Shown here in pieces: positions 1,745 to 16,720 of a stretch of 26,816 bases of DNA (the first letter of the stretch is position 1; each line of letters begins with the position of its first letter). The stretch comes from Methanotrichaceae archaeon. Its GTDB lineage: Archaea; Halobacteriota; Methanosarcinia; Methanotrichales; Methanotrichaceae. The position numbers were made by a program, and so were the translations under genes. The stretch spans positions 1-26,816 of the forward strand of contig CAVWIG010000037.1 of assembly GCA_963754945.1 (NCBI GenBank), given 5' to 3'. The notes beneath the pieces were generated by a model. The model did not search any database and had not been told where the DNA came from. It saw nothing but the letters and a program-made list of their open reading frames with translations.

Positions 1745-3202
1745 TTAAGTCACTCCCTTGCACACCTCACCTCCGCCCTCCAGATCCTCTCTGAAGAAGT
1801 CCCGCCTTGTGCGCAGCCCAAGAGCCAGTGCAGCCTTTCTTTTGGCATATAACGGAGCCAGCCTCAGCGTTTCCTTAGCAAACCACTTCGGATAAAGCCG
1901 CTTAACCTTGTTGTATCTGAACCATTCCCAATTGTAGTAGCGGGCGTTCATCTCCCAGGTGATGTACTGGATCTCCTCATCGCTCAGGTGCCTTGTCCTG
2001 CAGTTGGCGTGTAGGCCATCGTACTTCGTGAAATCGTTCTTCGTGACCAGGCCCATCTCCTCAAGCTCTGAACGCATCTGCGTCTTGGGGTAAGGCGTGC
2101 TGATGTAGAAAATGGGGACATCCACCTTTAGCTTTCGAGCCAGCCGGAAGTTCTCCCAGATGTCCTCGGCGTCATCCTCCGGGTTCCCGCCGATCAGGCC
2201 TGTGGAGACTATGATATTGTTATCGTGAAGATACTGCACTGCCCTCTCGGCATCATTCGACATACTGCCCTTGCCGAGAAACTGCAGGTTGCGCTTGTTC
2301 ACGCTCTCAACACCGAGGAAGACACCGTCGAAGCCTGCCTCGCCCATTTTGTCTACCAGCCTTTTGCTGGAGGCAATTCCTGAAGCCGAAGCCTGGGTCT
2401 TGTACCGCAGATGGGTGAGCCCTGCATCGATTATTGCCTGGCAGAGCTGCTCCAACCTTTTCACATCCAGGGTGATGTTGTCGTCAGGGAAGAATATCGA
2501 GCCGGCACCGTGAGCTTCGGCGTCCTGGATGTCGGCGATAACGCGTTCGAGCGGGAACTTGCGGAACCTGCGGCCATACATGAGGTTGATGCTGCAGAAC
2601 TTGCACCCTTGAGTGCACCCCCGGCTGGTCTCGACGGAGTCTATGGGAACCCCCAGGCTCTCGAATCCCCTGGTGAGCAGCCGGGCGTTCCGGTTAGGCA
2701 TTTTGATCTCGTTCACGTCCAAGAGCGGCCTTGCAGGGTTATGGACAAACTTATCTCCATCGTGAAAAGAGAGGCCGAGCACATCTTTGAGGCTCTTGCC
2801 TTCGAGCTTCGCCTTGACGAGCTCTCGGAACGTGGCCTCACCCTCGCCCCTGACGATGTAATCGATGAGCTTGGCATCTGGCGATTCGGCGATCTCCTGA
2901 TAAGCCAGAGTGGGGTGATATCCTCCAAAGACCGTCTCAGCTCCGGAATCCTTCACGATCCTTGTCAGTTCCAGAGCCTCTTGATACTGAAAGCTCATGG
3001 CGGTCAACCCAACAAGATCGTAGTCGTTGACGATGTTGCGGACATAATCTCTGGGGCGCTTCTGGCCGTGGATGTCGGCCACATGAACTGTGCACAGGTC
3101 GTCAACGTGCGCCGCCAGCGAGGCCAACCCAAGGTTTGGCAGACGTGCGATTCGGTCGAAGTCCGGCTGAACGATTGGGGATGAGAGCAGAAGGATTTTC
3201 AT
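1745..3202 (-). CDS. B12-binding domain / radical SAM protein (class B methyltransferase-like)
   Basis: N-terminal cobalamin-binding domain (PNLGLASLAA..DLVGLTAMS..GGYHPT..VRGEGE), then ETSRGCTQGCKFC (CxxxCxxC), FPDDN and LGVES. Confidence 0.92.
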   Translation of the reverse strand: MKILLLSSPIVQPDFDRIARLPNLGLASLAAHVDDLCTVHVADIHGQKRPRDYVRNIVNDYDLVGLTAMSFQYQEALELTRIVKDSGAETVFGGYHPTLAYQEIAESPDAKLIDYIVRGEGEATFRELVKAKLEGKSLKDVLGLSFHDGDKFVHNPARPLLDVNEIKMPNRNARLLTRGFESLGVPIDSVETSRGCTQGCKFCSINLMYGRRFRKFPLERVIADIQDAEAHGAGSIFFPDDNITLDVKRLEQLCQAIIDAGLTHLRYKTQASASGIASSKRLVDKMGEAGFDGVFLGVESVNKRNLQFLGKGSMSNDAERAVQYLHDNNIIVSTGLIGGNPEDDAEDIWENFRLARKLKVDVPIFYISTPYPKTQMRSELEEMGLVTKNDFTKYDGLHANCRTRHLSDEEIQYITWEMNARYYNWEWFRYNKVKRLYPKWFAKETLRLAPLYAKRKAALALGLRTRRDFFREDLEGGGEVCKGVT

Positions 3203-3205
3203 GGA

Positions 3206-4573
3206 CTAGCTGACCTTGAGCAGCCTGGGACCCTGGCTCCAATCAAATCTGTTTGCCCTGGCGATGTAGGCTGCTACTTCCCGGAGACCGGCCACGCCTC
3301 CGTACCGGTATGCATTGCCCCACACACGGGCGGAGGTCCTGATGGGTGCTGTCAAGGGATAGACCTGTTTGAAAGACCAGTCTAGGATGCCCGGAATCTC
3401 CTCCGGCTTGAGATTCGGATGGTTCCAAACCATGTGCTTGCCGTCGTAGTTGTGATAATCGTGATCCCAGATTCCGTACTTCTCCTTGATTTCTTTGTAC
3501 AGCGGCGTCTGAGGCAGGGGGGTTAGAACGCATATCTGGGTTATGTCAAGCTTGAGGGAGGCCAACTTAGGAATGTCCTCCCGGAGAGACTCCTTTGTGT
3601 CGCCTTCAAAGCCGATCATGTAGTAGCCTACTGTTCCCAGGCCGTGCTTCTGAAGCTTGCGTACGGCATCAAGGATGTCCTCCGTGCCCTCCTTCTTCTT
3701 TATGTCGTCCAAACGCTCCTGGTGCAGGTTCTCAATTCCTATGGCCGCGCCTCCGAAGCCGGCCACTAATTTTTTGCCTCTGCGCAGCCTCATCTCCGCC
3801 CACTCGTCTATCTTTCCTCGGAGATAGTCTGCGCGGGCCATGCAGCCCCAGACCATTTCGTACTTGTCCAGCAGCTCGACCACAGCGTCAGCGTGGCGAC
3901 GATTGCAGCCGAAGTTCTCGTCCTCGATCAAGACAACGTTTATTCCGTTCTCCTTGTAGTAGGCGATAACCCGTTCCAGGCTCTTTATTGAGATCGGGTT
4001 GGGCTTGCTGCAGAACACCGGCGTCTGGCAGAATTTGCAGCCCACAGGGCAGCCGCGAGTTGTAAAGAGTACGCCGTAAATGTTCAGCTTGATCCCAAAG
4101 GGTGTGTTCAGGTACTCGATCAATGGCGGGTGGAGGACGTCTTTGATCTGTCTTCCGAAGAATGGAGCGAGCTGGTGCTCCGAGTAGCCAACAAAAATCC
4201 TGTCGAACTTGTCTTGAATCTCTTCTGTGAGAGCGCCGTAGTTTCCGGCCCACACCTGGCCCACGTTGGCCTTGCGGGCAGCATCTACCATCTCTAGGGC
4301 CTCATGGGTTTCGCTGAGATAGAAGGAGAGGCCAACGACGTCCCAGCCCTCCTCCAGCTTTTTCAGGTATTCTTCCCAGGTAGGGAACTCCAGGATCTCC
4401 AGCTCAGGTATGTTCTGCTTGAGAAAGCGAAGTCCGAAGGACTGGATCCTGGGCCAGTAGAACCTGAACCACGACCTTGTGTTGGCCCCGATGTAATCGT
4501 AAGGTTCGGAGCCTTTCCTGTAAACTGTGGCGAACAAAACCCTGGGGGGCATGATTGTCTTTTCCAGTTCCAT
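3206..4573 (-). CDS. Radical SAM protein with a divergent B12-binding-like N-terminal domain
   Basis: Motifs TTRGCPVGCKFC, IEDENF, IGIEN, YYMIGFEGD and LTPLPQT. It ends 3 bp before the start of the other radical SAM gene, so the two are probably co-transcribed. Confidence 0.88.
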   Translation of the reverse strand: MELEKTIMPPRVLFATVYRKGSEPYDYIGANTRSWFRFYWPRIQSFGLRFLKQNIPELEILEFPTWEEYLKKLEEGWDVVGLSFYLSETHEALEMVDAARKANVGQVWAGNYGALTEEIQDKFDRIFVGYSEHQLAPFFGRQIKDVLHPPLIEYLNTPFGIKLNIYGVLFTTRGCPVGCKFCQTPVFCSKPNPISIKSLERVIAYYKENGINVVLIEDENFGCNRRHADAVVELLDKYEMVWGCMARADYLRGKIDEWAEMRLRRGKKLVAGFGGAAIGIENLHQERLDDIKKKEGTEDILDAVRKLQKHGLGTVGYYMIGFEGDTKESLREDIPKLASLKLDITQICVLTPLPQTPLYKEIKEKYGIWDHDYHNYDGKHMVWNHPNLKPEEIPGILDWSFKQVYPLTAPIRTSARVWGNAYRYGGVAGLREVAAYIARANRFDWSQGPRLLKVS

Positions 4574-8658: not shown

Positions 8659-11600
8659 ATGGACTTCGTCAAGTTGGTCTTTGTCTGCACTCTGGTCGTG
8701 GCTCTTCTCACTACAAGCCAAGCCCAGGAGAATTCCGCCAGGTACTGGCTTGAAAAAGGCCAGGCCCTTAGCTCTAATGGCTCTTATCAAGAAGCATTGT
8801 CGTCTTTTAATAACTCCATTGGGCTCGATAGCCGACAAGCTGCGGCTTGGACAGGCAAGGGAGATGTGCTGTACAAACTTGGTGGATACGAAGCCGCAGC
8901 GAACTGTTACGATCACGCGGTGGGCATCGATTCAGAGAACCCTGTGGCCTGGGAGGGCAAGGGTCTGGCCGCCTCGAAGCTGGGACGATACAAGATGGCC
9001 AGGCTCAGCTTCGAGTCTGCTCTGCGCCTTGACCCGAACAACAGAGCGTTCTTGTACAACATGGCTCAGGTCCTGAATAAGCTAGAGGATTACCAGGATG
9101 CCTTGGATGCTTACAACAAGTTGGATAAGATGACACCAGGGAACACCAGTGTGATTCTTGGCAAAGGCGATGCCCTAAGGGGTCTGGATAGGTTCGAAGA
9201 ATCAATCTCATGCTACGACAACGTCACTAAGACGGATCAACGAAACCGGTATGCAGTATTGGGAAAAGCAGAGGCATTGGTCGGCCAGGCAGAAGTGCTC
9301 TCGGGACTGCACAGGTTTGATGAAGCTATTCAACTCTACGATAAGGCTTCCGAACTCGACAGGAACAACTCTGATTCGCTCATGGGCAAGGCTAGAGCGC
9401 TGGCTGGAATAGGAGACCAACTGCTAGAACAGGGCAGCTTCAAAGAGGCTGGAGCGCTTTACAACCAATCACTGCTGTTGATCCCACAAAATCCGTTCGC
9501 GTTAGCAGGATTAGAAAACGTCTCTTCTCTCATAAAAGAGAGCTCTGAGCACGAGAAGTCAAAGACCAATATCGTACTTCCTTCAACAGAAAGCATTTCA
9601 ACCAATCTCATCGGACCCAGGGTTAAGGCACCTGAGGTCAACAACACACCTCGAAAACCTAGAAACGATTATAGCTACTGGATTAATAGAAGCCTGGAGC
9701 TCAGTCGAAATGGATCATTCGATGAAGCTCTGGCCTCCTTCAACCAAACTCTAGAGCTGGACGACCATCAGGCAGAGGCTTGGATAGGCAAAGGAGATGC
9801 ACTCTACAAACTAGGAAGATACGAGGAAGCAACCAACTGCTATGACCGGGCTATAGGCATCGATTCGGAAAACCCAAGGGCCTGGGAAGGCAAGGGCCTG
9901 GCCACATCGAAGCAGGGCAATCTAAGAATGGCCCGGTTCAGTCTGGATGCTGCGCTGCGCCTAGACCCGGATAACGCTCTGCTCTGGTACAATGCGGCCT
10001 ATGTTCACACCGGTCTGAAGGAGTATACCGATGCACTGGATAGCTACGATAGAGCTGAAAAGCTATCACCTGGCAACGTCCCCGCGTTCCTCGGAAAAGG
10101 CGGCGTTCTGATGATTCTAGGAAAGTACGGTGATGCAGTAAAGTGTTACGACCAGATTTTGGTCATCGATCCAAAGAACCTCAGCGCTATATTGGGGAAG
10201 GGAGATGCACTTCTGGCTTTGAAAGAGTACGATATGGCTCTGGAATCATATCAGAACGCCCTTGCCATCGATTCCAGAAATGTCACCGCTTATGTGGGCA
10301 GCGGAACCGTATTATCTGCTCAGAAGAAACTTGATCCGGCCCTTGAGTCCTATCAAAGGGCCTTGAATGTAAGCCCTGAAAACATCCAGGCCCAACTGGG
10401 AAAAGGGGATCTGCTATGGCAGAAAGGCAGTCTTGATCCGGCCCTCGAATCCTACGAGGACGTCCTCAAGCTCGATCCGGGCAATTCGTTTGCTCTCGCG
10501 GGGAAGGGAGATGTGCTCCGCCAACAGAGAAGATTGAACTTATCCCGCGTCAGCTACGAGTCTGCCCTAGGCCTCGATCCAAAGAATACCAGGGCTCTGG
10601 AAGGCCTGGCAGAGGTGGAATACCAGCAGAAGGACTTCGAAGGCGCCCTGAAATCCTACCAGAACGTCCACCAAATGGAACCGAAGAACATAAAGGCGCT
10701 GGTGAGACAAGGAGACATCCTCCGCCTGCAGGGGATGCTAGAAAAAGCCCTGGAATCCTATCAAATGGCCTTGGACCTTGACCCGAGAGACATCGAGGCC
10801 CTCTTAGGAGAAGGAAATGCTTTGCTCTTGGAAGAGAAGTTCGACTTGGCCCTGGGATTCTATACTAAGGCGCTTTCCATCGATCCGGGGGACACCAGGG
10901 CGCTTGAGGGAAGAGGCGATGCCCTTTACCACAAAAAGGATCTGGACGGAGCTCTCGCCTCATACCAAAAAGCCTTGATTCTAAACCCCCTGAAGCCCGG
11001 ATCTCTCGCTGGCATTGGAGACATCCTCTGCGATCGCGGCAATTTCACTGCGGGCCTGCAATTCTACAGAATGGCCATTGAACGAGACGACACCTGCGTA
11101 AGAGCATTAACAGGAGAAGGGATTGTACTGGCTGCACTTAACCGCTCCGCTGATGCATTGAAATGTTTTGACCGGATTGTTTCTTTGTATCCTGATAGCG
11201 CGGCCGCCTGGTCCAATAAAGGAAGCCTTATGGCGGCAACGGGAACATTAACTGATGCTCTAGGATGCTTCCAAAAAGCATCAGGTTTGGACCCCTCAAG
11301 CGAAGCTGTTTGGTCTAACCTGGGATTGACCTTCTATGAGCTTGGAAGATACCAGGAGTCAGCGGATTCGTACAAAAAAGCGCTCAGCTTGAAACCCGAA
11401 GACCCTACTGGTTGGTATGGCCGAGGGCTAGCTTTGAACAGAACAGGCCAGATCGATGAAGCAATAAAAAGCTATCAGAACGCCACAAGATTAGACCCGG
11501 GCTACACAGCAGCTTGGTACAACCAGGGACTGGCCCTGGCGAAATTGAACCGTAGTCAGGAAGCAGTCGATTGCTTCAACCGAGTTCTGGAGATCAATCC

Positions 11601-11670
11601 AAACATCTCTGAGGCCAAGTACAGCAGGGATCTGCTCCTGGATCTACATAAAGAGAATCTTTCGGGTTGA
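8659..11670 (+). CDS. Large secreted tetratricopeptide-repeat protein
   Basis: Signal peptide (..TTSQA), more than 20 34-aa TPR units of the W..KG.AL..LG.Y.EA...Y..AL.LDP type, and several N-x-S/T sequons. Confidence 0.93.
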   Translation: MDFVKLVFVCTLVVALLTTSQAQENSARYWLEKGQALSSNGSYQEALSSFNNSIGLDSRQAAAWTGKGDVLYKLGGYEAAANCYDHAVGIDSENPVAWEGKGLAASKLGRYKMARLSFESALRLDPNNRAFLYNMAQVLNKLEDYQDALDAYNKLDKMTPGNTSVILGKGDALRGLDRFEESISCYDNVTKTDQRNRYAVLGKAEALVGQAEVLSGLHRFDEAIQLYDKASELDRNNSDSLMGKARALAGIGDQLLEQGSFKEAGALYNQSLLLIPQNPFALAGLENVSSLIKESSEHEKSKTNIVLPSTESISTNLIGPRVKAPEVNNTPRKPRNDYSYWINRSLELSRNGSFDEALASFNQTLELDDHQAEAWIGKGDALYKLGRYEEATNCYDRAIGIDSENPRAWEGKGLATSKQGNLRMARFSLDAALRLDPDNALLWYNAAYVHTGLKEYTDALDSYDRAEKLSPGNVPAFLGKGGVLMILGKYGDAVKCYDQILVIDPKNLSAILGKGDALLALKEYDMALESYQNALAIDSRNVTAYVGSGTVLSAQKKLDPALESYQRALNVSPENIQAQLGKGDLLWQKGSLDPALESYEDVLKLDPGNSFALAGKGDVLRQQRRLNLSRVSYESALGLDPKNTRALEGLAEVEYQQKDFEGALKSYQNVHQMEPKNIKALVRQGDILRLQGMLEKALESYQMALDLDPRDIEALLGEGNALLLEEKFDLALGFYTKALSIDPGDTRALEGRGDALYHKKDLDGALASYQKALILNPLKPGSLAGIGDILCDRGNFTAGLQFYRMAIERDDTCVRALTGEGIVLAALNRSADALKCFDRIVSLYPDSAAAWSNKGSLMAATGTLTDALGCFQKASGLDPSSEAVWSNLGLTFYELGRYQESADSYKKALSLKPEDPTGWYGRGLALNRTGQIDEAIKSYQNATRLDPGYTAAWYNQGLALAKLNRSQEAVDCFNRVLEINPNISEAKYSRDLLLDLHKENLSG

Positions 11671-11804
11671 CTGGAAGATCTATTGAGCTGGAATCGATAA
11701 TAGCGAATGATTATCTTATCGTCACAGAAAGCTGAGGTAGCACCGTTGGAGATGCACCATAGAGGGTGGTGGGAAAACCATTTCTACGTACTCCAGCAAG
11801 CTTG

Positions 11805-12266
11805 CTACCATCTTCCCTCAGCACTTCGTTTTTTGGCTTGCAAAACGTTTTGATTTATGTCTTGATTTACCAAGCCAGTAACCTCAGCCAACAATCTGTA
11901 CTGCCTGTTGTTTCTGTTGCCTTTGCGTTCCAGAAGACCGTCGCGGTTCATTCTGGAGAGGTAAGTGGAGACAGTGGAGAGCTTGATATCGTCAGAAACA
12001 GTCTCGTATTTATCTCTGAGCTGCTGAGTTGTGAACCAGTTTTCAGGAAATTCGAACCTGATGAAATTCTCCAATCTGTCCATCAAGGTTCCACCGGCTT
12101 CGTAGGTATGAGCGGATTGAGGCTGGCTTTCTTTCTCAGAGAATACACCTGAGGCACCCAAATAACTTACAATCTTGTCTCTGAGATCCTCTCCCCCGAG
12201 CTCTTGGGATTCGAACTCATAGACTGATTTCATGCCTTTGTCTTCGATCTCAATCCGGATCCTCAT
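11805..12266 (-). CDS. Uncharacterised protein with C-terminal winged helix-turn-helix
   Basis: C-terminal WFTTQQLRDKY..IKLSTVSTYLSRMNRDGLLERKG..RQYRL fits a wHTH pattern, and there is a short N-terminal beta-beta-alpha module. GGTG lies just upstream of the ATG. Confidence 0.8.
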   Translation of the reverse strand: MRIRIEIEDKGMKSVYEFESQELGGEDLRDKIVSYLGASGVFSEKESQPQSAHTYEAGGTLMDRLENFIRFEFPENWFTTQQLRDKYETVSDDIKLSTVSTYLSRMNRDGLLERKGNRNNRQYRLLAEVTGLVNQDINQNVLQAKKRSAEGRW

Positions 12267-13140
12267 GTAACACCAACTCTTGATCCTTCCCTCGATCTAA
12301 GCGTTGAGTCCAGGAGCCTGATCGAGGGTCACTGAAATCCCTTCGGTGATTGAACGATCTATCTTCTCGTATCCGGCTACGTCAAATCTGTGTCCTTGGC
12401 GCAGATCAATTGACAGTGTGAACAACTTGATGCTTCCCCTCATGTATCTTCCCTTCCATCTACCCTACAGATCTGGAAGGATCGAATCAGGACCGAAAAG
12501 ACCCCCTTATTCGTGCCTGACACGACCCAATTTCCTTCACTCGTGTCATCCCTTCACTTCGTGCACAAACGCCACCATCTCGATTTTCAACGATCGAAAA
12601 CCGATACGGTTCCATCTTATCCCGCTGTCCCTTTCCAGCGGCCTGGATTACGTTTATGCATCTCCAACTTCTAGCCCTCTTGTCGTCCCTTTCCGACAGT
12701 TAGGCTTTTAATGGATCCGGACTAGCTTCCAATCTCAAACTCGGCCGTCCCTTTTTCGGCTTTGATTGAGAGTTCGAACCAATCTTGTCCGATCCGAACT
12801 GCTTCTCCCTTCTTGCTCCCTGGTGCCATCCCTTATCGAGGCGTACTGACATACAGCTCGTAACTTGCCAGGGATCACAAAGATCCTGGCTTCCCCTTCA
12901 TTGCTACTCAGTTCGTGCCATCCCTTCAGGTGACTCGAGCTTGTACAATATGGACAAAGTCAGGATCGTTACAGATCTTGTGCATCGTTATATCTGTTGA
13001 ATGCCTTCGAACCGCGATCACGACTTTTCCACAGTACGCCGTTTGCGGACCTGCGAAGACCCATCCATCCCCTCAAGACGAATAGCTCCTCAGACAACTC
13101 CTGTCTGATGTATTCAGACAGGGTGTCAACCCTTTTTTGA
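12267..13140 (-). ncRNA. Candidate large structured RNA / 5' leader with repeated AAGGGA motifs (family unassigned)
   Basis: No convincing ORF. Multiple stems (12289-12328, 12562-12660, 12580-12604, 12622-12641, 12681-12698, 12744-12760, 12771-12800, 13100-13122), several of them needing G-U pairs available only on the minus strand. Nine exact AAGGGA copies on the minus strand. A BRE/TATA lies immediately upstream. Boundaries are approximate. Confidence 0.6.
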
Positions 13141-13163
13141 CAACTATAACCTTGTAATAGAAG

Positions 13164-13178
13164 TATATAAACTTTTCC
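13164..13178 (-). promoter_or_regulatory. Archaeal promoter (BRE + TATA box)
   Basis: The minus strand reads GGAAAAG-TTTATATA, a purine-rich BRE directly 5' of a consensus TATA. This predicts a transcription start near 13140. Confidence 0.7.
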
Positions 13179-13381
13179 AACAGTCGAAAGTTGTAGTTAA
13201 TCGATAACAACAAAGAATATAGTTTTATTTTTGAAATAGAACCAGTATAGTAGTCTAAATAGTATTCACACATAATGCTTTCGACGGGAAACTTGTAGTG
13301 TATATCGCTGTTGAGAGGAGATACTAATTGATACTATCATAATAATAAGATATCCGCAGATGCTTTAATTATGTTCGCGAC

Positions 13382-13402
13382 ATTGTGAAAGCTTTTCACA
13401 AT
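13382..13402. promoter_or_regulatory. Perfect palindrome, candidate transcription-factor operator
   Basis: ATTGTGAAA-GCT-TTTCACAAT (9-bp arms, 3-nt spacer) in AT-rich intergenic DNA, with a further half-site ATTGTGAA at 13427-13434. Confidence 0.45.
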
Positions 13403-13569
13403 CCTTACGTTTCGCAGATATTGTAGATTGTGAATCCCATTTCTTAGGTTGACCAACTCATCGGAATTAGCGGTTGTGCGCGGAGTTCAAAAGGATATTA
13501 TTCCCGAGATTTATTGTTGTGACCGCCAAAGAGCGGTCGTCTCTCCACCATACTAAAAAAGTGAGTTAT

Positions 13570-13692
13570 TTAAGAAGCCTGATTTGGTTCGAAGTACTCT
13601 TCAATAAGCCAGTCGCCGATCTCTTTTAGATACTTGCGCCTGCGCTCATCTTCCAAAATAAGCTGAAAAACCTCGGATAAATCTTCATCCAT
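13570..13692 (-). CDS. Small acidic protein, 40 aa (below the ORF track cutoff)
   Basis: Manual translation gives MDEDLSEVFQLILEDERRRKYLKEIGDWLIEEYFEPNQAS*. A TTTAAAT TATA-like element lies about 30 nt upstream and a T6 tract just downstream (13555-13560). Confidence 0.6.
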   Translation of the reverse strand: MDEDLSEVFQLILEDERRRKYLKEIGDWLIEEYFEPNQAS

Positions 13693-13760
13693 TGGTGTCT
13701 CATATGTTCCAGGCGGCATTTAAATCTATCGAAAGCAGCCAGGGCAAGCTCAAATCAGAT

Positions 13761-14537
13761 CTAATCTAGATTCTGCATAGGCCTGCGATTTATCCTGGCT
13801 AGGATCAGAGCAACATAGTAAGGCCCTTGTGTCCTCTTCAGCCTGCCAGCGTGCACAGGGTGGTCGCCGCAGAGGACCAGAAGAGTCTCATTCGAGGCGG
13901 CAGATGCTATCTTACCAGCGCAGCGATCTATCGAAATCGCGGCATTTCTTATCTCCTTTGGTCCAAGGCCCAAGTGAACCGTCTTATCTATTCCTATGAA
14001 ATAAGATATTAGTAACCTAGGCTTGCTGGCGAGAGCCTCAAGGGACTTGCTACAGGACTCCTGGTCGAAATCTTCCGGGCTCAAGCAATCTGGAATCCCT
14101 GAAGCGATCTCTATTTTGTCTCTATAGACATCTGCTCCACTCTTTTCCATTATCACAGCAGATCTGAGCCCCTGTAAGCTGGCAGCTTCAGGTAGGCTTG
14201 GCATTCTCGATTTCTCGACGCTCTCTTTATCAAAGATCCTGTGATGCTCAGGCAATAGACCGCTGAGGATGGAAGCGATGGATGGAGATGTGTGAGTGGA
14301 TACGGCTTCTGCTTTCATCAGAAGGCCGCATTTGGCTAAATCCGGTATGTGCTTCAGACCAGGCTCCAGCCACCGGTAGAGATCGTAACCTAGGCTGTCA
14401 ACGATTATTAGAACGGCGTTTCGGCATTTCCAGCCATTTACCTCTCTAATCGGTCTTCCATCCACATTGTGAATGGCTATGCCCAAAACTTGCGCAATGG
14501 TAGGAGCGATATCCACCTGGCTGACATGTCTCATCAC
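13761..14537 (-). CDS. Alkaline phosphatase / sulfatase / phosphodiesterase superfamily protein
   Basis: Metal-ligand motifs LIIVDSLG, STHTSPSIASILSGLLPEHH, IDKTVH and LCGDHP. Confidence 0.8.
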   Translation of the reverse strand: MMRHVSQVDIAPTIAQVLGIAIHNVDGRPIREVNGWKCRNAVLIIVDSLGYDLYRWLEPGLKHIPDLAKCGLLMKAEAVSTHTSPSIASILSGLLPEHHRIFDKESVEKSRMPSLPEAASLQGLRSAVIMEKSGADVYRDKIEIASGIPDCLSPEDFDQESCSKSLEALASKPRLLISYFIGIDKTVHLGLGPKEIRNAAISIDRCAGKIASAASNETLLVLCGDHPVHAGRLKRTQGPYYVALILARINRRPMQNLD

Positions 14538-15268: not shown

Positions 15269-16720
15269 ATGATTATGAAGCCTGAAGAGATCCAGAAAAA
15301 GTATTCTGAGCTGGTCGGGATTTGCAGCAGGGCAAAAGGCGAGATCTCAGCGAACGAGGAGATTGTGGTGGCATCTCATGTTGATGCAGATGGCCTGACC
15401 TCATCAGGCATAATCTGCACTGCCCTTGAGAGATGCGGGATAGAATACAAGCCACAATTTTTCAGACAGCTCGATGGGCCTGCGCTAGAGCAGATCGCTA
15501 ACATGGGCGTAGGTCTGGTCGTGTTCACTGACCTAGGCAGTGGCATGGTGAAGGAGATCTGTGAATTAGGCATTCGTGCCATCATCGCCGATCATCACAG
15601 GCCAGGACCAGAGGGCGAAACAGGACCTGTGGCCCACATCAACCCTCATCTCGTTGGAGCAGATGGAGCCACAGAGCTTAGTGGCAGCGGGGCATCTTTT
15701 CTTCTCGCCCATGCTTTATCATCGGGGAACGATGACCTCTCTGGCCTAGCAGTCGTTGGCGCAGTTGGGGATCTCCAAGACATGAGCAGGGGTCAGTTGG
15801 TGGGGATCAACCGCGTGATTCTTGAGATTGGCTCTAAGGCTGGTGTCCTCCACTTCGGCAGGGACCTGAAGCTATTTGGCAAGCAGACCCGGCCGGTCTA
15901 TAAGATGCTGGAGTACTCCCAGGATCCGTATGTACCGGGACTGTCCGGTGATGAGGATTCTTGCATCGCCTTTCTAAAGGAGGTTGGGATCCGCCTGGGA
16001 GGTGAGAAGTGGAGACGCTGGATAGACCTGAATCAGGATGAGAAGGCACGAATGGTCTCCGCCCTGGTGAGACGGGGCCTGCGTAGCGGGATCTCCCAAA
16101 CAAAATTGGAACGACTGGTGGGAGAGGTTTACACTCTACTGCGTGAGGCGGAAGGTACCGAACTTCGAGACGCCAGTGAGTATTCTACACTGCTTAACGC
16201 CACTGCTCGCTACGGACATTCGGACGTTGGCCTTAAGGTGTGCATGGGAGATCGAGAGAAGGCTTTCGCTGAGGCGCACACCCTTCTCAACCAGCACAGG
16301 CAGAACCTGGTCAATGGCCTAAAGATCGTCCGCGAGAAGGGAATCACGCCCTTGAAGAACATCCAGTATTTTGATGCAGGAGCCTCCATACTGGACACAA
16401 TCGTGGGAATCGTGGCAGGCATGTGCTTCCAGATGGCCGACAGATCCATGCCCATTCTGGCCTTTGCTCGGACTCCTGAAGGAGACATAAAGGTCTCTGC
16501 TAGGGGAACTCAGGACTTGGTGAGGTCGGGGCTTGACCTGTCGGGAGCCATGTCAGAAGCGGCGCGCGCCCTGGGCGGCGTTGGAGGAGGTCACAACGTG
16601 GCTGCTGGTGCGACCATCCCGCTCAAGGCTCGCGAAGAATTCCTGGAGATGGTGGATGCCATGGTGGGACGCCAGCTATGTGGTCAGGCGCAAGGCAGGA
16701 AGCCCGCTTCGCTCAGGTGA
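15269..16720 (+). CDS. Archaeal RecJ-like DHH/DHHA1 phosphoesterase
   Basis: Motifs SHVDADG, FTDLGSG, ADHH, VGAVGD, KVSAR and GGGHNVAAGA. Confidence 0.92.
   Translation: MIMKPEEIQKKYSELVGICSRAKGEISANEEIVVASHVDADGLTSSGIICTALERCGIEYKPQFFRQLDGPALEQIANMGVGLVVFTDLGSGMVKEICELGIRAIIADHHRPGPEGETGPVAHINPHLVGADGATELSGSGASFLLAHALSSGNDDLSGLAVVGAVGDLQDMSRGQLVGINRVILEIGSKAGVLHFGRDLKLFGKQTRPVYKMLEYSQDPYVPGLSGDEDSCIAFLKEVGIRLGGEKWRRWIDLNQDEKARMVSALVRRGLRSGISQTKLERLVGEVYTLLREAEGTELRDASEYSTLLNATARYGHSDVGLKVCMGDREKAFAEAHTLLNQHRQNLVNGLKIVREKGITPLKNIQYFDAGASILDTIVGIVAGMCFQMADRSMPILAFARTPEGDIKVSARGTQDLVRSGLDLSGAMSEAARALGGVGGGHNVAAGATIPLKAREEFLEMVDAMVGRQLCGQAQGRKPASLR

Follow-up and report, generated by a model that had tools for sequence, protein, structure and literature searches.

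A strand-specific array of AAGGGA motifs in the conserved 5' leader of a winged-helix gene of Methanotrichaceae

The regulator gene and its 5' leader

The window analyzed here is a 26,816-nt stretch of contig CAVWIG010000037.1 (C37) from the genome of a Methanotrichaceae archaeon (assembly GCA_963754945.1; 54 contigs, 2,968,897 nt, 87.7% complete), in which nine copies of the hexamer AAGGGA are clustered on the minus strand upstream of a gene for a predicted winged-helix protein. Methanothrix and its relatives rank among the leading sources of biogenic methane formed from acetate. To our knowledge, post-transcriptional regulation is almost unstudied in these organisms, for which we know of no genetic system. 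The nine-motif stretch is the middle of a minus-strand 5' leader of approximately 880 nt and not the free-standing small RNA (sRNA) gene suggested by the analogy with bacterial CsrB/RsmZ that was drawn in an initial annotation of the window, made from the sequence alone. The feature is real, conserved and undescribed: full-text searches of the literature, whose supplements might hold transcriptome tables, found no report of such an RNA in Methanothrix/Methanosaeta or of a CsrA-like sponge in archaea.

The gene downstream of the leader (11805..12266, minus strand) encodes a protein of 153 aa predicted to consist of an N-terminal beta-hairpin and helix followed by a C-terminal winged helix-turn-helix. 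The protein shows weak matches to the Penicillinase_R and Cdc6_C winged-helix profiles; its AlphaFold2 model has a predicted local distance difference test score (pLDDT) of 69.7, and the best Foldseek matches are regulators of the PadR/MarR/ArsR/MecI type at E about 3e-3, with none at 1e-3 or below. The open reading frame (ORF) is present in 91 of the 105 genomes of the family, with annotations that go no further than hypothetical or 'ArsR family', and homologues are found in 193 of 251 genomes across the class. The ATG at 12266 is preceded, at a distance of 4 nt, by a Shine-Dalgarno (SD)-like GGUG (12271..12274, minus strand) that fits the 3' end of the 16S rRNA, GGAUCACCUCCU.

Approximately 905 nt 5' of this ATG, the minus strand carries a TATA box, TTTATATA (13171 to 13164), preceded by a purine-rich GGAAAAG that resembles a transcription factor B recognition element; the two together (13164..13178), read from the sequence against the familiar consensus, are presumably the archaeal promoter of the gene. 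Among 62 upstream regions gathered for orthologues of the gene, 49 are distinct, and 36 of these have the TATA box within 1100 nt, the same TTTATATA being located 484-1024 nt 5' of the ATG. The predicted transcript starts some 22-27 nt past the TATA box, which delimits a structured leader RNA at 12267..13145 (minus strand). Between the array and the ATG, a sequence scan of the leader RNA strand found no run of five or more T. Thus, the array belongs to a 5' leader with one conserved promoter, and a free-standing sRNA is not borne out. Over 874 nt, the leader is 94% and 87% identical to those of two genomes of the same genus; elsewhere in the family, recognizable similarity (75-89% identity) persists in the promoter, in the initial ~90 nt of the transcript and in a single inner block. 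The possibility that the leader is coding was considered and rejected, the small ORFs in it (for example, minus-strand 12969-13097 and plus-strand 12346-12711) being disrupted by one-base indels in close relatives. A search of 11500-14000 against Rfam with cmscan, at E values up to 10, returned only a chance match to bxd_5. On the opposite, plus strand, the very start of the minus-strand leader is overlapped by a terminator-like hairpin with a T-run (13120-13133; AGGGTGTCAACCCT followed by TTTTTG). There is no plus-strand gene end close by; a gene for a tetratricopeptide repeat (TPR) protein stops at 11670.

Small parts of the stretch are contained in 21 peat metatranscriptome runs, and the contigs from 4 of these runs were mapped. 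The contigs tile 11786-13108, that is, the gene and the leader, whereas none lies over 11700-11753 or 13158-13300 in any of the 4 runs; one contig enters adapter sequence directly past 13108. Because assembled contigs cannot show strand, true ends or level, and DNA carry-over is possible, these data are consistent with a transcript comprising leader and gene but do not prove one. Two of the runs (X1 and X3) show, at 12834-13049 in the leader's 5' third, a summed contig depth several-fold above that of the gene, which could reflect either a stable processed 5' fragment or many strains summed over a conserved part; given that contig depth cannot rank parts, nothing is drawn from this excess or from the uncovered stretches.

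The motif array, its hairpins and their conservation

The array itself (12338..12926, minus strand) is read on the plus strand as TCCCTT at 12338, 12450, 12549, 12628, 12686, 12748, 12806, 12829 and 12921, which places the RNA-sense 5' ends of the nine AAGGGA copies at 12343, 12455, 12554, 12633, 12691, 12753, 12811, 12834 and 12926. Minus-strand variants of the form AAGGGG, AGGGGA or GAGGGG lie at 12435-12441, 12503-12508, 12892-12898 and 13068-13074. The four copies from 12628 to 12806 follow one another at 58, 62 and 58 nt, and spacing over the whole array is irregular (23-112 nt). A motif scan of the window detected no copy on either strand in 11123-12337 and 12927-14039. All the motifs, variants and spacings listed in the initial annotation were recovered.

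The genomic frequency of the hexamer is 0.31 per kb on each strand (958 + 885 sites over 2,968,897 nt), so that approximately 0.18 copies are expected per 589 nt; dinucleotide-preserving shuffles of the 589-nt stretch contain 0.69 copies on average. With nine copies observed and a maximum of five in 5000 shuffles, none of which reached nine, the array is not a product of chance. When the motif was counted genome-wide in sliding windows of 600 nt, the array came out as the densest cluster (9 copies), followed by one of 6 copies on contig C27 and then by two of 4.

Three copies are displayed in the loops of hairpins that read exactly as first described. Hairpin A (12622..12641, minus strand) is CCGCUG-[GAAAGGGA]-CAGCGG; hairpin B (12681..12698, minus strand) is UGUCG-[GAAAGGGA]-CGACA and stands on a further 3-bp stem; hairpin C (12734..12770, core 12744-12760, minus strand) is GCCG-[AAAAAGGGA]-CGGC with an outer stem CUCAA/UUGAG. 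In an alignment of eight leaders (the window and seven close relatives, from two genomes and five metagenome contigs), four of the six pairs of hairpin A change on both sides (CG/GC, CG/UA and UA/CG), contributing most of the covariation signal of the three hairpins, while the loop GAAAGGGA is constant in seven of the eight sequences and carries UAAGGGA in the remaining one. Hairpin B shows U-A to U-G changes, with 97.5% of the alignment cells paired and an invariant loop. In hairpin C, the outer stem undergoes A-U to G-U and C-G to U-G changes; the inner stem never varies and is therefore uninformative. Taken together, the three hairpins are paired in 96.9% of the cells, compared with 24-50% after a shift of the 3' partners by 1-3 columns, and include five pairs with changes on both sides; their covariation score of 0.222 was matched by none of 500 shuffles (0.147 +/- 0.017). 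For the whole leader alignment, RNAalifold predicts 187 consensus pairs, 31 of them with compensatory changes. The G-U replacements in the stems indicate that the conserved entity is RNA rather than DNA.

The remaining copies include a second class of motif, AAGGGAUGGCAC, at 12915..12926 (minus strand) and again at 12823-12834, with the form AAGGGAUGACAC at 12543-12554 (repeat families D1 and D3). Across the 49 leaders, AAGGGATGG is the second commonest context of the motif, and the second context AAGGGAUGGCA(C) is equally widespread in the orthologous leaders. Upstream of the array, the leader opens with a 5' domain of two hairpins. The first (13093..13129, minus strand; core CCUGUCUGA-AUACA-UCAGACAGG) is kept throughout the family, with C-G/U-G and U-A/A-U changes that preserve the pairs. 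The second (13054..13092, minus strand) has 17 pairs, many of them G-U, and contains a 23-nt block (13062-13084; G-rich arm GAGGGGAUGGAUG) that is invariant inside the genus; its lower stem, UGAGGA/UCUUCG in the window genus, becomes UGAAGG/CCUUCA in other genera, an A-U to G-C replacement.

In the 36 orthologous leaders with a TATA box (mean length 846 nt), AAGGGA occurs 236 times in the sense orientation, against 21 expected from base composition and only 3 antisense TCCCTT, and at least three copies are present in 34 of the 36. Copy number ranges from 2 to 12 between genera, positions differ, and the irregular spacing is not conserved. Many of these leaders start with AAGGGA a few nucleotides past the predicted start, where the window genus has AAGGGU. 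Another 15 loci, taken from those genera of the family that diverge most, have 0-7 copies, both zeros belonging to second gene copies with short leaders. Loops closed by at least 4 bp hold 103 of the 282 motifs in the 49 leaders, as opposed to 59.7 +/- 5.0 (maximum 72 in 200 trials) in a flank-swap control; the loop sequences include 47 cases of GAAAGGGA and 11 of GGAAGGGA, carried on approximately 68 different stems that are nearly always closed by G-C. At least one G-[GAAAGGGA]-C hairpin, with differing stems, is found in 29 of the 36 leaders. The initial description of a constant loop on variable but paired stems thus holds within the window, by compensatory changes among close relatives and across the 49 orthologous leaders. 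Outside the family, the 1200 nt upstream of 12 homologous genes contain no copy in six cases, one in four and two in two, a range of only 0-2 that makes the array a Methanotrichaceae innovation.

Additional copies of the gene were observed in some genomes. Genomes of genus g8 encode two regulator-gene copies (L167 and L168 in G022, L171 in G009), one with a leader of ~450 nt and 3 AAGGGA, the other with a TATA box ~200 nt upstream and no motif. A same-genus genome (G002; C59:1940-2407 and 3072-3321) has a second, diverged gene and leader start, with 66% protein identity and an in-frame TAA, which may be a pseudogene or belong to another strain in the same bin. A further locus, conserved in g8 (G047, G048, G049, G052, G053, G056 and G009; for example, L145 and L147), reads AAGGGAAGGA(A)AAAGGGAAGGATCTGCGGATGTCGGTCAAAAGGGA. 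Elsewhere in the window, an ORF cut at the window start (2-922) reads by eye like an insertion sequence transposase; the TPR-repeat protein (1003 aa; 8659-11670) is encoded convergently with the regulator gene; and profile matches assign 13761-14537 to the phosphodiesterase/sulfatase superfamily and 15269-16720 to a DHH/DHHA1 (RecJ-like) protein.

A second motif-bearing mRNA and the search for CsrA

The next-densest cluster in the genome (C27:36076-36212) spans the ~85-nt 5' untranslated region (5'UTR) and the first codons of an ORF at C27:36159-36983; at this locus (C27:36019-36983), four copies of AAGGGA lie in the 5'UTR and two in the first codons. The product, of 274 aa, has an N-terminal membrane anchor and matches no Pfam family, and a large protein search retrieved only four relatives (five matches including the query). 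The 5'UTR and its motifs are better kept across the family than the protein is, and the promoter and 5'UTR region is matched in 41 of the 105 family genomes. Among the 12 orthologous loci that were fetched, ten have an AAGGGA within ~30 nt past the TATA box, near the predicted 5' end, and all 12 have AAGGGAG 4-10 nt before the ATG, over the SD region. The motif is thus placed as in a CsrA target, whose classical layout comprises two sites, one of them over the ribosome-binding site. In several genera, a GAGGGGAUGGA block precedes the last copy in this 5'UTR, and in the window genus, the reverse complement of GGATGGATGAA is located just 5' of the TATA box.

Beyond these two RNAs, upstream regions show no general enrichment of the motif (0.29 sense vs 0.25 antisense per kb in 590 kb, crudely delimited by an ORF caller in which a spurious ORF hid the leader of the window itself), so that any regulon would be very small. 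A search of the 105 genomes with a triple-motif pattern retrieved, apart from the two RNAs, mostly tandem repeats, and a reversed-pattern control also matched many genomes. A hairpin scan of the 1843 genomic AAGGGA sites was discarded as a locus finder, being too lenient (183 matches).

The comparison with CsrB/RsmZ made in the initial annotation stands in part. The array is non-random, strand-specific and conserved at the RNA level; it comprises multiple GGA-containing motifs, with three of the nine looped in the window, and there is a second mRNA, in one gene family, with the motif over the SD sequence (12 of 12 orthologous 5'UTRs). Nevertheless, the array is not a member of the CsrB family on three counts: no CsrA, no Rfam match and no separate sRNA. 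CsrA/RsmA (PF02599) was not detected in the window genome, which is 87.7% complete, nor in any of the 64 high-quality genomes of the family, and was found in only one of all 105; the controls, E. coli, B. subtilis and T. maritima, were all detected. The sole match (L165; G114:C19:3109-3264; 86 bits), in an 88%-complete genome, possibly comes from a contaminating bacterial contig. An independent transcript with its own terminator is not indicated either, there being no run of five T, the promoter lying ~905 nt upstream and the contigs spanning leader and gene. Instead, promoter, noncoding structured RNA and downstream gene are conserved as one unit, as in cis-regulatory leaders.

Candidate functions and relation to known systems

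The explanation that currently accounts best for these observations, and which we hold tentatively, is that the leader works as a multivalent array on which a sequence-specific factor docks. This factor would control the regulator mRNA and perhaps be titrated by it, a kind of regulation that is barely known in archaea. Behind the invariant two-hairpin 5' domain, AAGGGA copies, some in GAAAGGGA loops on arbitrary stems and others in AAGGGAUGGCAC, would be docked by a trans-acting factor, probably an RNA-binding protein, the encoded winged-helix protein being among the candidates. Once bound, the factor would determine how stable the regulator's own mRNA is or how well it is translated, and titration of the factor could free or restrain a few other mRNAs with the motif, the second family-wide mRNA in particular. 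A more specific version, possible but doubtful, is a CsrA-independent circuit analogous to Csr/Rsm titration, in which a protein (maybe the winged-helix protein acting on RNA) would recognize both the GAAAGGGA loops and AAGGGA at the ribosome-binding site, with the leader serving as autoregulatory target and sponge and the copy number of 2-12 tuning the free pool.

Several observations weigh against a protein docking array. The encoded protein, judging from its model, appears to resemble an ordinary winged-helix regulator that binds double-stranded DNA and no known RNA binder. The lack of general enrichment of the motif upstream of genes (0.29 vs 0.25 per kb) has been noted above; of the 12 occurrences of GGAAAGGGAC in the genome, just two are in the leader; and a lenient rule draws a 4-bp hairpin at 183 of the 1843 genomic AAGGGA sites. 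Clear loops hold just three of the nine copies in the window, the covariation comes from eight related sequences, in which the inner stem of hairpin C is invariant and hence neutral, and the RNA evidence consists of assembled metatranscriptome contigs with the limits on strand, ends, level and DNA carry-over described above. Finally, G-rich blocks of the GAGGGGATGGA type occur at a third locus in the orientation opposite to the likely transcript, as would be expected of a DNA site or an RNA-RNA duplex more than of RNA bound by a protein.

An RNA-RNA decoy, in which the G-rich motifs (GAGGGGAUGG, AAGGGAUGG and the GGGA loops) pair with a C-rich RNA and the leader is its sponge or target, is unlikely but has a concrete candidate partner. 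The 23-nt block of the 5' domain has a second copy, with two mismatches, at one further locus of the same genome, on contig C28, where its neighbors are a UPF0047/yjbQ-like gene on one side and a gene of the GPR1/FUN34/YaaH type (acetate-permease-like) on the other, and at least one match to the block is found in 43 of the 105 family genomes. The conserved element on C28 (C28:12100-12260, L104 ~1600-1760) is ~110 nt long and comprises an outer stem GGATCCGGG/CCCGGATCC, the inner 23-nt copy, a second block UCGAGGGG(A/U)GGAU and an adjoining invariant ATCATATATAAATTTTAC; against Rfam, the locus gave only sub-threshold chance matches. In 30 aligned loci of this type, an invariant TATA-like box is present on the opposite strand, and the changes in the outer 9-bp stem GGAUCCGGG/CCCGGAUCC, seen in 8 loci, are G-U on that strand and C-A on the G-rich strand, which suggests that the C-rich strand is transcribed, as the 5'UTR of the yjbQ-like gene. 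If so transcribed from its conserved TATA box, this 5'UTR would expose the complement of the 23-nt block, and both differences between the window and C28 copies would be G-U wobbles in an intermolecular duplex; the second mRNA, moreover, has CGAGGGGAUGGAAGGGAG beside its SD sequence in several genera. However, transcription of the C-rich strand is only predicted, the C-rich tract complements GAGGGGAUGG and not AAGGGA (one mismatch in six), and no UCCCUU-rich RNA was found, all the top genomic clusters being G-rich in the sense of their gene. Furthermore, structure prediction buries the 23-mer of the leader within a 17-bp hairpin that it forms itself. As an exact block it is missing from the leaders of most genera, and 7 of 16 genera lack it altogether; these genera nevertheless keep AAGGGA arrays.

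It is likewise improbable that the leader acts solely in cis, with the motifs building its fold through loop-receptor or other tertiary contacts, as a sensor or thermometer, or determining processing and stability, with no titration involved. Such a role would agree with the 187 predicted pairs (31 compensatory), the invariant 5' domain, the location of the array ahead of a single gene, with only that gene's promoter in evidence, and the possibility of reading GAAAGGGA, by eye, as two tandem GNRA-like tetrads. Yet copy number and position vary freely (2 to 12 copies) while the loop is fixed, a pattern of interchangeable sites rather than of a single fold, and the motif recurs in an unrelated short 5'UTR.

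Operators at the DNA level appear quite unlikely. The GGGATGG cores and AAGGGA would bind a factor, most simply the downstream winged-helix protein, which would coat the leader DNA and, as a roadblock, autoregulate its own gene, and would also act at the other two loci. This protein is a predicted DNA binder; at three loci, and in either orientation, blocks of the GAGGGGATGGA type lie within ~100 bp past a conserved TATA box, which is compatible with a double-stranded DNA operator, and the reverse complement of GGATGGATGAA upstream of the C27 TATA box in the window genus could be a further site. Arrays of direct repeats in a single orientation are known for cooperative DNA binders. However, hairpins with compensatory and G-U changes are meaningless for double-stranded DNA, every copy lies past the start of transcription and, with few exceptions, in the sense orientation of the RNA (236 vs 3), a copy coincides with the SD sequence of the second gene in all 12 orthologues, and the spacing of copies is irregular and not conserved. 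Both the RNA-RNA and the operator explanations are ranked below an RNA-binding factor because neither accounts for the display of AAGGGA in loops or for the strand bias.

Decoys resembling SD sequences, also proposed in the initial annotation, or standby sites that attract 30S subunits, fit poorly and are very improbable: the 16S rRNA of the window genome ends in GGAUCACCUCCU, to which AAGGGA is not complementary, making it a poor SD mimic. AAGGGA can form no more than 4 contiguous pairs with CCUCCU, a wobble included, the regulator gene has a separate GGUG, and display in a closed 8-nt loop is unusual for ribosome docking, even though all 12 orthologues of the second mRNA have AAGGGAG at the distance from the ATG that is typical of an SD sequence and some leaders of the genus Methanothrix have AAGGGA 10-15 nt before the ATG. 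That the array is a compositional by-product of a purine-rich spacer, given the 59% A+G of the leader strand, is ruled out by the 5000 shuffles (0.7 copies on average and at most 5, vs 9) and by the recurrence of the excess in 34 of 36 orthologous leaders.

A family-wide RNA with a covarying motif array, in lineages with neither CsrA nor a matching Rfam family, offers in its short hairpins an entry point to an archaeal RNA-binding regulator. If titration of a protein were confirmed, the sponge principle of bacteria would extend to Archaea by convergent evolution, and the titration circuit would be the first protein-sponge RNA described in this domain; if the partner proved to be the winged-helix protein, a transcription-factor fold would be reading RNA loops.

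Among known systems, long 5'UTRs are common in Methanosarcinales and, like the post-transcriptional sRNA41 and sRNA154 of Methanosarcina mazei, are comparable to the leader described here in a general way, but the M. mazei sRNAs pair via C/U-rich or specific seeds, and none is known to consist of identical hairpin loops in an array. Bacterial leaders such as that of trp, which is bound by TRAP, are similar in that a short repeat in a 5' leader is read in cis by a multivalent binder; the GAG/UAG triplets of the trp leader, however, are close, regular and unstructured, whereas the sites in the archaeal leader are 23-112 nt apart and partly looped. A likeness exists to CsrB/CsrC and RsmX/Y/Z, the bacterial sRNAs that titrate CsrA/RsmA, which also contain many GGA-purine motifs, several in loops on unrelated stems, vary in copy number between lineages and have at least one mRNA with the motif upstream of and over its SD sequence; the loose A-N-GGA core is matched by the AGGGA within AAGGGA. 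The archaeal host, the lack of CsrA and of an Rfam match, the fixed 8-mer loop GAAAGGGA and the location in an mRNA leader of ~0.9 kb with no terminator set the array apart from these sRNAs; it likely resembles a CsrB-type multivalent array by analogy of mechanism and not as a member of the family.

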